Shown here: positions 16,392 through 64,000 of the stretch, one piece after another
Numbering within the stretch: the stretch's first letter is position 1
How the letters are laid out: every line of letters begins with the position of its first letter
From: a virus
Virus genome (UHGV): UHGV-0018629
DNA: 64,000 nucleotides
Direction: 5' to 3' (one strand)
Notes under the pieces: generated by a model
The model's database searches: none
What the model saw: the letters and a program-made list of their open reading frames with translations, nothing else
What the model was told of the DNA's origin: nothing
Made by a program: the position numbers and the translations under genes

Positions 16392-18002
<1,611 letters not shown>

Positions 18003-29039: not shown

Positions 29040-29102
29040 ATGAACCTCGTTCAATTAGTGAGATTTCTATTATATACCATCCAAATCTTAAAGTAAACAA
29101 GT

Positions 29103-61123: not shown

Positions 61124-61327
61124 TCATGATTTATCCCCATAGATGTCTCTCATCAATTTAAGCGCTGAGCGTTCTAATTTCTTTTCTTTCTCAGCACTAA
61201 TCATTGATTTCATCCATTCTTCCGATTCGTTCTGCATTTCTTTATTTGCCTGTTCAACCCAACCATCATCAATATACATTGAGTTTGGTCTACTGAACCA
61301 TTCAAGCATCTTCTTCAGAACTTTCAT
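61124..61327 (-). CDS. Hypothetical protein (67 aa)
   Basis: ORF track. Confidence 0.4.
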
Positions 61328-61799
61328 TTGTTTTACCTAAAATAACAGTAGGAACATCATCAAATTCATGAATTTTTAGCAAATTTGGATGTAAACTATT
61401 CCATACAGAAGAAATAAAGTATGATAAAGCATCTTCACTCGCAATTATAAATTTATTTCCTTTATCTATTTTCCAACTATATACTGAATCATACGAATAG
61501 AAAGATAAAGGATTATCATTATATTGTTCTGCGCTAACATTAATGTATTCTGATTTAGTAAATGCTTCAATTGCTCTAAATGGAATATTTGGTACAGTTT
61601 CAATAATTCCGATCTTTTTAAGTTTTATTTCAGCATCTTCTGGAACTGGCATTGAAACGAAATTTTCTACGAGATACATTGGGTCACAATAACCCTTATC
61701 AATCATTACTGCTACGGTAATTGGAACGTCTTTAGCAAACGACAAACTATTACTGCTAATATACATTTCAAACAAAATCGCTTCCATAATTTTCCTCAA
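61302..61799 (-). CDS. Hypothetical protein (165 aa)
   Basis: ORF track. Confidence 0.5.
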
Positions 61800-62134
61800 T
61801 CACAAGATGTAGATGAACAACTAGAATCACAAGAACTTCCACACGAATCGCCCATCCATACATGAACAGGAACATTAGTATCATATGAATCAGAACTAGA
61901 CTGTGTATTCTGCGTATTAGATGATGTAGGTATTGACCAGCGCCAAGGATTTTTATAATATTCCTGGGCTTCTTCATAAGTCATAGTAACTGCTTCTACT
62001 GTTCCATCTCCCATATAAACATATTCAACTACAGTTAAAGGGAGGTAGTCATTTGAAATAGGAACTACACCTTCTCCGGGAGTCGTAGAGAAAAAATCCG
62101 TAAAGAAACTTTTAAACCAATTAAAGATAAACAT
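61796..62134 (-). CDS. Hypothetical protein with Cys/Ser-rich C-terminal tail
   Basis: 112 aa; C-terminus [18 protein letters not shown]. Confidence 0.5.
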
Positions 62135-62346
62135 TACAAAAAGCCTCTTTGAAATTCGACTCTTTGAAATCCACCCCAGTCAGTGTATCGCATTTCAGCA
62201 TTGAACTCGACTGAACCATCTGCATGCATCATGAATGAATGCGTGACGATATCACAATCCCAGCTTTTCATACCCCATTTATCAGAGATAGCTTTATCAA
62301 GAACCTTCTGGAGGTCTTCATTTGGTTTAATCCAACGATTTAACAT
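62134..62346 (-). CDS. Hypothetical protein (70 aa)
   Basis: ORF track; early promoter 62373-62402. Confidence 0.5.
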   Translation of the reverse strand: MLNRWIKPNEDLQKVLDKAISDKWGMKSWDCDIVTHSFMMHADGSVEFNAEMRYTDWGGFQRVEFQRGFL

Positions 62347-62444: not shown

Positions 62445-62690
62445 TTAACCACCAGTTACTTTCCACAAATCTTCGTTTGCAGTAATCCATGCATCACGTT
62501 GATTTTCTTCGTATACAGTAGTATATGCTGCTTTTTCTGAAGGGAATGTCTGGTAATGAGCGCCAGAAATTTTGTGAACGTCAGAATAAAGAGGGAAAGC
62601 TACAGAAATTTCCTTTCCTTCAATTTTCTTATTTCCATCTAATTTCTGCTCAAATGTTTTAATATTAACATAACCGCGAGTACTAGCCAT
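62445..62690 (-). CDS. soc: Small outer capsid protein Soc
   Basis: 81 aa; MASTRGYVNIKTFEQKLDGNKKIEGKEISVAF recognised; late promoter TATAAATA upstream; terminator downstream. Confidence 0.92.
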   Translation of the reverse strand: MASTRGYVNIKTFEQKLDGNKKIEGKEISVAFPLYSDVHKISGAHYQTFPSEKAAYTTVYEENQRDAWITANEDLWKVTGG

Positions 62691-62720
62691 GTAATTCTCC
62701 TTTTATTTAAATTACATGAC

Positions 62721-62728
62721 TATTTATA
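62721..62728 (-). promoter_or_regulatory. Late promoter TATAAATA for soc
   Basis: Reverse complement of tatttata about 30 nt upstream of soc ATG. Confidence 0.65.
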
Positions 62729-62762
62729 ATAAATTCTCACAGCTTTTAAGCCGTCGTTTATA

Positions 62763-63281
62763 TTAATAACCTCGGTCTTGACGAGCGAAGTTTTCAGCAT
62801 TTTTCAGATAATAAAGTTTAAAGATTTCTTCAGCCGTAAGACCGAGACCTTGGAACATGTTCAGAACGAAATGAAGAATATCAATCATTTCGAATTTAAT
62901 TTCCAACTGGTCTTGTGGAGACAAATCAGTAATTAAAGTTTCACGGCGTTCACCATGCTGTGACTTCCAAGGTTTCCATACAGCAGATGCATCTTTTTCA
63001 CCATTGCTCATACCACCAAGAGAAGTCAGTAGTTCGCGGAATTCATCATCAATATAATCTTTCTGATTACGCAACCAATCAACAACTTCGCCTGCGGTAG
63101 CCAAATCATCAGGATGACGGTTATATTCAGGTTTATCTTTAGCTAAACGAACCTGCAGAGATTTCTGCATATCAAGCATAACCTGCAGTGGGTCTTTTTC
63201 ATCACCGAGAATATCCCAGTATTCATTTTGAGCTTTATCAGCGCCTTCAATCAGTTGTGAACATTCATTAAAGTATGCCAT
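62763..63281 (-). CDS. 56: dCTP pyrophosphatase gp56 (MazG-like)
   Basis: 172 aa from MAYFNECSQLIEGADKAQNEYWD; ORF-track N-terminal extension discarded. Confidence 0.8.
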   Translation of the reverse strand: MAYFNECSQLIEGADKAQNEYWDILGDEKDPLQVMLDMQKSLQVRLAKDKPEYNRHPDDLATAGEVVDWLRNQKDYIDDEFRELLTSLGGMSNGEKDASAVWKPWKSQHGERRETLITDLSPQDQLEIKFEMIDILHFVLNMFQGLGLTAEEIFKLYYLKNAENFARQDRGY

Positions 63282-63352
63282 TATTTTTCCTTTCAATTCA
63301 TGGGTTAGTAGATTAATTATACAATAAATATATAAAGCAATAAGGAGGACAT

Positions 63353-63553
63353 ATGGTACAAAAATTAATGGCACTTATTAATGCCATAAAAGGTAATAAA
63401 AAACGTATAGCTTTTACTATTTCTGCTATGGTAGGAATTTTACTCTGGAACTTTATTTTATCACCAATTGCAATTGCGCATGGTGTTAATATTCCAGTAG
63501 TTACTCTTGATACATTCGTAGATTTAGCATTTGCTTTAGTTGGGCTAATTTAA
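63353..63553 (+). CDS. Small membrane protein (66 aa) on the opposite strand to its neighbours
   Basis: AGGAGG Shine-Dalgarno 4 nt before ATG; two hydrophobic segments; possible late-promoter-like AATAAATA upstream. Confidence 0.5.
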   Translation: MVQKLMALINAIKGNKKRIAFTISAMVGILLWNFILSPIAIAHGVNIPVVTLDTFVDLAFALVGLI

Positions 63554-64000
63554 ATCTTGGCATATTTAGATAGCCGCATTTTAGCCATTAACCCCTGGGC
63601 AATATTATTTTTCATATATTCCATAATTTGTTCAGGGGTTGCACCTTCCTTTCTAATCATATCATTAACATCTTTAGATTTCCAGGGAGATTTATCCCAA
63701 AACATAACCCTTTCTCCTGCATTGACTAATTTAGTCATTCGCTTAATTGTATCAGGATGCCGAGGTTCATTATCTAAGACCCACACACGTCTATCTTTAA
63801 ATGGAACAACTTCTAGGTCTAATTGACCACCCGTAATGGCTATACCATTTTCAATAAAAAGTGAATCGATAGGTCCTTCTAGAACATATACATCACCATC
63901 TTTAACTCGTTCAACACCGTAAATTTTTGTTGCCTCAGGATAAGCTTTGATAGTGATATATTTTTGAGGAGCATCTTTCTTTAATGCACGTCCTTGAAAA
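63550..64000 (-). CDS. 61: DNA primase gp61, C-terminal part (5' end lies beyond window)
   Basis: Frame open to window edge; TOPRIM-like EGPIDSLF...VLDNEPRH motifs. Confidence 0.7.
   Translation of the reverse strand, partial: FQGRALKKDAPQKYITIKAYPEATKIYGVERVKDGDVYVLEGPIDSLFIENGIAITGGQLDLEVVPFKDRRVWVLDNEPRHPDTIKRMTKLVNAGERVMFWDKSPWKSKDVNDMIRKEGATPEQIMEYMKNNIAQGLMAKMRLSKYAKI

Follow-up and report, generated by a model that had tools for sequence, protein, structure and literature searches.

A compact gene 56-gene 61 junction without dam in a T4-like phage, and the conserved 66-codon frame that converges on the primase gene

What does it mean when a T4-like phage brings the genes for dCTPase/dUTPase (gene 56) and DNA primase (gene 61) much closer together than T4 does? 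The question arose for a stretch of 64,000 nucleotides of the virus genome UHGV-0018629 (hereafter, the window), whose source is a Tequatrovirus, i.e. a T4-like phage, and in which a small open reading frame on the opposite strand occupies the gap between the two genes. The original prediction read this arrangement as the apparent absence of a block of T4 genes comprising dam, sp, dmd and the 61.x genes, with a two-TM membrane ORF in their stead. The analysis reported here leads to another reading, which we hold to be quite likely: the window displays the common dam-less T-even junction, with a convergent 66-aa ORF (ORF66) and interleaved promoters, dam having been inserted in T4 and T2, and sp and dmd lying upstream of gene 61. 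The junction as such is an ordinary configuration, already sequenced and annotated.

The last 1.6 kb of the window carry, on the minus strand, soc, gene 56 and the C-terminal part of gene 61. The features of this region are the following:

62445-62690, minus strand: soc, small outer capsid protein (phrog_1715, E=1e-42; 95% identity to T4 Soc by tblastn)
62763-63281, minus strand: gene 56, dCTPase/dUTPase, 172 aa, RB32-type allele (phrog_173, E=1.5e-46)
63316-63340, minus strand: predicted MotA-dependent middle promoter of gene 56 (from the sequence; T4 counterpart P(M)16.53)
63323-63330, plus strand: late-promoter-like octamer AATAAATA (7/8 match to the T4 late consensus TATAAATA)
63342-63348, plus strand: Shine-Dalgarno sequence AAGGAGG of ORF66, 4 nt before the ATG (from the sequence)
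63353-63553, plus strand: ORF66, 66-aa predicted small membrane protein of the phrog_2024 / RB32ORF030w / RB69ORF029w family (phrog_2024, E=1e-31)
63358-63387, minus strand: terminator-like hairpin AUGGCAUU/AGUGCCAU followed by a U-run (terminator scan; fold z-score -1.9)
63550-64000, minus strand: 3' part of gene 61, DNA primase, last 149 codons and stop, continuing past the window end (phrog_47, E=2e-52)

As regards this layout, the original prediction was accurate. Gene 56 starts at 63281 and the primase gene ends at 63550, the spacing being 268 bp where about 270 bp had been announced, and the sequence from 63550 to 64000 does encode primase: its product is 98.7% identical over 149 aa to residues 194-342 of T4 gp61 (tblastn). 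The plus-strand 66-aa ORF with a strong Shine-Dalgarno sequence and an overlap with the primase stop is also found as described; it is the sole substantial ORF in the gap, and its end overlaps that of the convergent primase gene by 4 nt (63550-63553). Packed into the 268-bp gap are thus ORF66, its promoter-like octamer and its RBS and, on the opposite strand, the promoter and the RBS of gene 56. On the other side of gene 56, the spacer to soc (62691-62762) measures 72 bp and contains none of segF, soc.1 and soc.2. The gp56 protein is 100% identical to that of RB32, 90% to that of Dhakavirus JS10, 73% to that of T4 and 71.5% to that of T6; this allele pattern, together with the absent segF, soc.1 and soc.2, amounts to mosaicism around the known SegF target gene. 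Another local mosaic patch is seen at 61302-61799 and 62134-62346 (minus strand), where mrh (76%) and mrh.2 (57%) are far more diverged from T4 than srh, modA.2-4 and mrh.1 (95-98%).

The case for block loss depends on the T4 map, which the original prediction took to have dam and 61.1-61.5, including sp and dmd, between genes 61 and 56. Half of this is wrong. The order in the T4 reference (NC_000866.4) is 41-dmd-61.4-sp-61.2-61.1-61-(310-bp unannotated gap)-dam-56-segF-soc, so that dam alone lies between 61 and 56, and the segment from 61 to 41 contains 61.1, 61.2, sp, 61.4 and dmd. Since these genes stand upstream of 61 in T4, a position that falls past base 64000 here, their absence cannot be deduced from the junction; for sp and dmd, the T4 arrangement is the same relative position as in the window, and this part of the prediction fails. 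A tblastn search with the T4 proteins returned no match to segF, sp or dmd within the 64-kb window, and dmd was present upstream of 61 in all the compact-junction relatives examined, namely RB32, T6 and ECp13. More specifically, RB32 and ECp13 share this compact junction, and in both phages 61.1, sp, 61.4 and dmd fill the interval from 61 to 41; the T6 locus, which ends within dmd, contains sp and the start of dmd upstream of 61 in the same run. Over the last 25 kb, no complete relative is closer than ECp13 (97% identity), whose dmd and sp, found upstream of 61 with 61.4 and 61.1, show 96.7% and 95.9% identity, respectively (tblastn). Judging from these relatives, sp and dmd are expected upstream of gene 61, beyond the window end. 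The proposed absence of dmd and sp is therefore an artefact of a wrong map, and the sensitivity to RnlA/LsoA-type toxins that it implied is without basis in the window, the site of dmd lying outside it.

What stands of the missing block is dam, which is found neither in the junction nor elsewhere in the window. This absence is what the idea of a lost block (dam, 61.1-61.5, sp and dmd gone, a membrane ORF in their place, the phage sensitised to restriction and to RnlA/LsoA) has in its favour. Against it weigh the T4 map, on which sp, dmd and 61.x are found across gene 61 from the junction, the presence of dmd upstream of 61 in the compact-junction relatives examined and, finally, the fact that T4 possesses dam and ORF66 together, which means that the ORF does not sit there "instead" of dam. 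We consider this explanation extremely improbable.

The absence of dam, for its part, is borne out. A tblastn search of the 64-kb window with T4 Dam came back empty, even with the cut-off relaxed to E<=10, and no credible ORF with a DPPY motif was seen there. The complete genome of ECp13, which was assembled from five pieces for the Dam, Dmd and Sp search, yielded only noise with Dam at E<=10 and no plausible DPPY-motif ORF. Given that ECp13 has no Dam homologue genome-wide, the phage studied here likely lacks one too; on the strength of the window and of its relatives, it is probably devoid of a Dam of its own. The original prediction was thus probably right on this point, although dam-lessness has long been known for T-even phages. 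In classical work from the 1960s-70s, induction of a DNA adenine methylase is reported for T2 and T4 and not for T6, in agreement with the dam-less T6 locus and with the presence of dam next to gene 56 in T2.

How common is the compact form? A 1301-bp query covering the junction aligns in a single piece, with 95-96% identity, to RB32, RB51, RB27 and others. T6 (NC_054907), RB32 (NC_008515; the ORF is RB32ORF030w) and RB51/RB27/RB68 all show the same succession of soc, 56, the plus-strand 66-aa ORF and 61, without dam, and in the T6/RB32 group the 1.3-kb segment can be aligned over its full length at 95-96%, with a few point differences. Of the T-even genomes to which an alignment had been proposed as a check, T6 is collinear with the window and has no dam at this locus, and T4 and T2 carry dam beside 56. 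Note that T6 departs from the window in having ATT in place of the first ATG of the ORF, and in the presence of two further small ORFs in its 56-soc spacer. In 294 phage records, a 191-bp probe that bridges the junction finds an uninterrupted match, and a T4-type Dam (at least 90% identity) is found in about 182, so that the compact form is the majority state in Tequatrovirus (about 294 versus about 182 records). It also extends beyond the genus. The dam-free compact junction is present in T6 (judged at the locus), RB32, RB69 and JS10, and the order 56, convergent 66-aa ORF, 61, with dam absent, is that of RB69 (Mosigvirus), JS10 (Dhakavirus) and Klebsiella phage Biddle. Because outgroup genera share the compact form, this form is most simply ancestral and dam an inserted cassette; the compact junction is probably the ancestral one, even though free recombination among these phages means that insertion and deletion of dam within Tequatrovirus cannot be told apart with certainty.

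Comparison with T4 suggests what was inserted. T4 (NC_000866.4) resembles the window in its flanking genes, in the 66-aa ORF lying on the primase stop (63/66 identical residues) and in the MotA-box promoter before 56; it differs by some 880 extra bp, by segF between 56 and soc, and by the fact that ORF66 is unannotated. The surplus of about 880 bp lies between the MotA box and the RBS of ORF66, and consists of dam and the 3' remnant of a 186-aa ORF. The intact version of the latter is found in an IMG/VR locus (L007), where dam and the complete 186-aa ORF (L007 1341-1901, minus strand; phrog_8706) lie between the MotA box of gene 56 and the 66-aa ORF. Relative to this locus, 540 bp are deleted in T4, where only the final ~28 codons of the 186-aa ORF persist (L001 4629-4711 in our T4 locus). 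This arrangement suggests that T4 dam arrived within a two-gene cassette, which in T4 and T2 would have been inserted between the MotA box and the late promoter, beside the remnant of the 186-aa ORF. The 186-aa protein has a sub-threshold match to the Pfam DpnII (GATC) endonuclease family (E=0.0045, 16.8 bits against a cut-off of 23), and the dam cassette may possibly derive from a restriction-modification system. With this sub-threshold DpnII match and an empty PDB search, we did not retain the 186-aa ORF as a restriction enzyme.

The converse scenario, in which an ancestor with a T4-type dam cassette gave rise to the compact junction by a recent deletion, deserves consideration: T4 and T2 have dam at exactly this site, deletions do occur here, as shown by the 540 bp of the 186-aa ORF gone from T4, and recombination among T-even phages has left both states within one genus. 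However, the compact form is common to the Mosigvirus RB69, the Dhakavirus JS10 and a Klebsiella T4-like phage, it predominates among the Tequatrovirus records, the middle and late promoters interlock precisely in it without any scar, and the dam segment looks like a two-gene cassette. We regard recent loss as unlikely, and insertion of dam into a pre-existing compact junction as the better reading. A third state of the junction was also encountered, with an HNH homing endonuclease gene between 56 and its middle promoter (L022 895-1545 in Yersinia phage fPS-90); the HNH-inserted junction exists in Killian and ECO07P1 as well. This insertion indicates that the 56-61 gap receives mobile cassettes repeatedly.

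We now turn to ORF66 itself. Residues 2-66 of its predicted product cover positions 1-65 of the 65-position phrog_2024 profile. By tblastn, the 66-aa ORF is present in 693 phage records, about 503 at Tequatrovirus-level and 190 at Mosigvirus-level identity, and members of the family occur in Tequatrovirus, Mosigvirus, Dhakavirus and a Klebsiella T4-like phage, which makes at least four lineages of Tevenvirinae. It is absent from the more distant phages Margaery (Pseudotevenvirus) and Erwinia phage COW86c. An exhaustive profile search of 1.8 billion representatives returned the family, confined to the phages that carry it here, together with one new sub-lineage (P0039) and one repetitive false match. 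The T4 copy (L001 4739-4939, i.e. T4 17738-17938, plus strand), with the same overlap with the primase stop, sits in the 310-bp gap between dam and 61 and is unannotated both in NC_000866.4 and in the original entry X01416; the JS10 copy (L020 1750-1950, minus strand in the locus) is unannotated as well. In hundreds of automated annotations of relatives, the 66-aa ORF is a 'hypothetical protein'.

Several traits of this frame are those of a gene. Its length is 65-66 aa in nearly all family members. Its convergence with the primase gene and the 4-nt overlap of the two ends recur in the window, T4, RB32, T6, RB69, JS10 and Biddle, and the GGAG(G) core of its RBS is kept in all the homologous loci examined. 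RB69ORF029w and the JS10 and Klebsiella-phage homologues are like ORF66 in all these respects (65-66 aa, 4-nt overlap with 61, NATAAATA and GGAG upstream, the same invariant residues), although identity to the window protein is 51-57% in the RB69 group and drops to 22-28% in the JS10/Klebsiella group; the JS10 group further differs by an Asp inside the transmembrane helix and by the absence of the second acidic residue of the tail. Across these three sub-families (22-57% identity), seven positions are invariant: the start Met, W32, N33, P38, G44, P48 and G64. ORF66 is under purifying selection: pairwise dN/dS is 0.1-0.3 within Tequatrovirus and within Mosigvirus, and the variable sites within Tequatrovirus fall 13 times at codon position 3, and 8 and 3 times at positions 1 and 2. 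Between Tequatrovirus and Mosigvirus, dN is 0.40 and dS is saturated (>1.9). Regarding T6 (NC_054907; L004 2501-2701), we observed that, the first codon being ATT, annotation places the start at Met6, a long way from the Shine-Dalgarno sequence; with ATT for ATG, the protein may be dispensable or weakly made in T6. The label carried by the T6 record, 'putative head morphogenesis protein', is the outcome of a chain of mislabelled similarity notes.

ORF66 shares its upstream region, 71 bp in length, with the promoter of gene 56. On the minus strand, in the canonical layout of a MotA-dependent middle promoter, a MotA box TTGCTTTA (63340-63333) is separated by an 11-nt spacer from a -10 element TATAAT (63321-63316), which is itself about 28 nt from the ATG of gene 56, RBS included. 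The element at the equivalent position in T4 appears in record X01416 as mot-box promoter P(M)16.53; for RB69, the predicted promoters include a middle one ahead of gene 56 (Pm:16038), and the fPS-90 annotation has one ahead of the homing-endonuclease/56 pair. Within the spacer of this middle promoter, on the plus strand and 22 nt before the ATG of ORF66, lies the late-promoter-like octamer. Such an octamer, NATAAATA, is found 19-22 nt upstream of the ATG in every lineage examined ([T/A/G]ATAAATA, five sequence contexts):

window and RB32: AATAAATA, 22 nt to the ATG
T4: GATAAATA, 21 nt to the ATG
RB69: AATAAATA, 21 nt to the ATG
JS10: AATAAATA, 21 nt to the ATG
Biddle: TATAAATA, 19 nt to the ATG

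The surroundings of the octamer cannot be aligned between lineages, and its position relative to the MotA box of gene 56 varies. Note that, owing to its location within the middle-promoter spacer, part of its conservation in Tequatrovirus could stem from the middle promoter.

The late consensus of T4, TATAAATA, extends from -13 to -6, and A or T at -13 is common in T4-like phages (PMC1524935). The G found at -13 in the T4 octamer counts against a late promoter, and Nolan et al. 2006 give no late promoter upstream of RB69ORF029w. On the other hand, the distribution of ATAAATA in the window is consistent with selection against stray late promoters: 13 copies are present against 35 +/- 6.6 expected from shuffles, i.e. 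an about 3-fold depletion. Nearly half of these copies lie 18-34 nt before ORFs, namely genes 34, 36, t and soc, a 698-aa ORF and ORF66 (examples from the window scan are the copies at 29102, 34169 and 38992 on the plus strand, and at 62728 and 4724 on the minus strand). Gene t is preceded by the very octamer found before ORF66, and soc by the consensus octamer, 30 nt upstream at 62728 (minus strand). ORF66 lies on the clockwise, late-gene strand and has a short leader after the octamer. Taken with the conservation of the octamer, this strand assignment leads us to infer that ORF66 is expressed late, in a gp55-dependent manner. Literature searches on RB69ORF029w/RB32ORF030w, on T4 ribosome profiling and small ORFs, and on late-transcript maps did not turn up transcript or proteome evidence for ORF66.

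The other element that overlaps ORF66 is the minus-strand hairpin, whose stem (63387-63368) is situated some 165 nt past the primase stop, within codons 6-12 of ORF66. The annotation of Yersinia phage fPS-90 gives this element as a terminator; it is not conserved in RB69, and the evidence that it terminates the primase transcript is weak. A search of 62600-64000 against Rfam gave nothing above noise. The possibility that ORF66 owes its conservation to a conserved RNA or terminator role was ruled out by the absence of the hairpin from RB69.

Could the 66-codon frame nevertheless be open by chance, within a spacer devoted to regulation (primase 3' UTR and terminator, gene 56 promoter, neighbourhood of oriA)? 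That the curated T4 and JS10 records leave it unannotated, that a terminator-like hairpin lies inside it and that Pfam and NCBIfam contain no family matching it, even at E<=10, would fit such a view. But a chance frame would not be expected to combine a dN/dS of 0.1-0.3 and most variable third codon positions with a frame held open at 65-66 codons in the lineages examined, down to 22-28% identity, around an invariant W-N...P...G...P...G pattern; moreover, the Shine-Dalgarno sequence and NATAAATA keep their distance to it despite unrelated flanks, and the hairpin is not conserved in RB69. A chance frame is accordingly very unlikely, and sequence conservation makes ORF66 very probably a protein-coding gene.

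The product was described in the original prediction as a two-TM protein. AlphaFold2 (two runs, mean pLDDT about 79) models three helices, at residues 2-13, 16-42 and 52-63. Residues 1-18 contain five Lys/Arg and no acidic residue, and residues 19-42 form a convincing transmembrane segment with a good insertion score. In contrast, the C-terminal hydrophobic segment scores poorly (5-8 kcal/mol on the Hessa scale) and its modelled helix is amphipathic and 12 residues long. The C-terminal 24 residues (43-66), which end in ...ALVGLI, are devoid of Lys/Arg and include two acidic residues, D53 and D57, of which only D53 is conserved family-wide. Likewise, TMHMM gave one TM for RB69ORF029w (Nolan et al. 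2006). The first of the two proposed segments thus stands, and the second is doubtful: the two-TM topology is a weaker reading than a single pass, and with a basic N-terminus and an acidic C-terminus the positive-inside rule favours one pass in the N-in/C-out orientation. The predicted product is therefore small, resides in the inner membrane and has a single transmembrane helix that is predicted with confidence. Its basic amphipathic N-terminus would be cytoplasmic, its single TM would place a Trp-Asn pair mid-membrane, and its short acidic amphipathic C-terminal helix would be periplasmic. In this model, the invariant Trp-Asn together with the Pro/Gly residues at the periplasmic end of the helix suggests helix-helix association, either with itself or with a partner: the polar Asn in the helix would mediate self-association or docking onto another membrane protein late in infection.

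Concerning function, a profile search of the PDB gave only noise and a fold search of the PDB gave nothing. A fold search of BFVD retrieved the family of ORF66 itself and, at weak E-values, two 63-aa phage proteins, and the PHROGs category of phrog_2024 is 'unknown function'. The labels 'Holin' (from a UniProt submitter) and 'head morphogenesis' found on homologues are submitter or pipeline names without support. The idea that ORF66 encodes a holin or a pinholin-like lysis protein can still be weighed on other grounds: the protein is small and membrane-embedded, it has a late-type promoter, one homologue bears the submitter label just mentioned, and the polar Asn that is invariant in its transmembrane helix would be in keeping with oligomerisation. 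Yet the Pfam/NCBIfam searches at E<=10 returned no holin family, the charged hydrophilic C-terminal tail typical of holins is missing, neither an endolysin nor a spanin gene adjoins, and the PDB offers no structural match; besides, T-even phages already use holin T, and gene t is present in the window with its own AATAAATA. A holin is, in our view, a distinctly unlikely identity.

Holin T, the antiholin RI and Imm provide the closest points of comparison. Like the ORF66 product as predicted, they are small phage inner-membrane proteins, and the promoter variant of gene t is the same as that of ORF66; unlike them, ORF66 has another location and no sizeable periplasmic or cytoplasmic domain, and no sequence or profile similarity to any of the three was detected. 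Our best guess, frankly speculative and with the odds clearly against it, is a role in late envelope or lysis-timing control. A more definite version, in which ORF66 would be a late inner-membrane accessory of envelope or lysis control kept in every examined lineage of Enterobacteriaceae-infecting Tevenvirinae, T4 included, and would use its Trp-Asn pair to modulate, for instance, holin T/RI or late superinfection exclusion, is put forward as a tentative proposal that we think improbable as it stands.

What this junction tells about the biology of the phage is limited: it is uninformative on dmd and sp, it is the form that most of the T4-like coliphages sequenced have, and the consequences are small. 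The phage probably lacks a Dam of its own, as does T6, in which case methylation of its GATC sites would depend on the host; this would be relevant to defence systems that read m6A, and is already known for T-even phages. Digestion with DpnI/DpnII, proposed as a check on adenine methylation, gives unreliable results on DNA that contains glucosyl-hmC. As for the family, the presence of T4 dam beside the remnant of a second cassette gene hints at how dam arrived, and the curated annotations of T4 and JS10 omit a conserved gene for a small predicted membrane protein that is probably expressed late.
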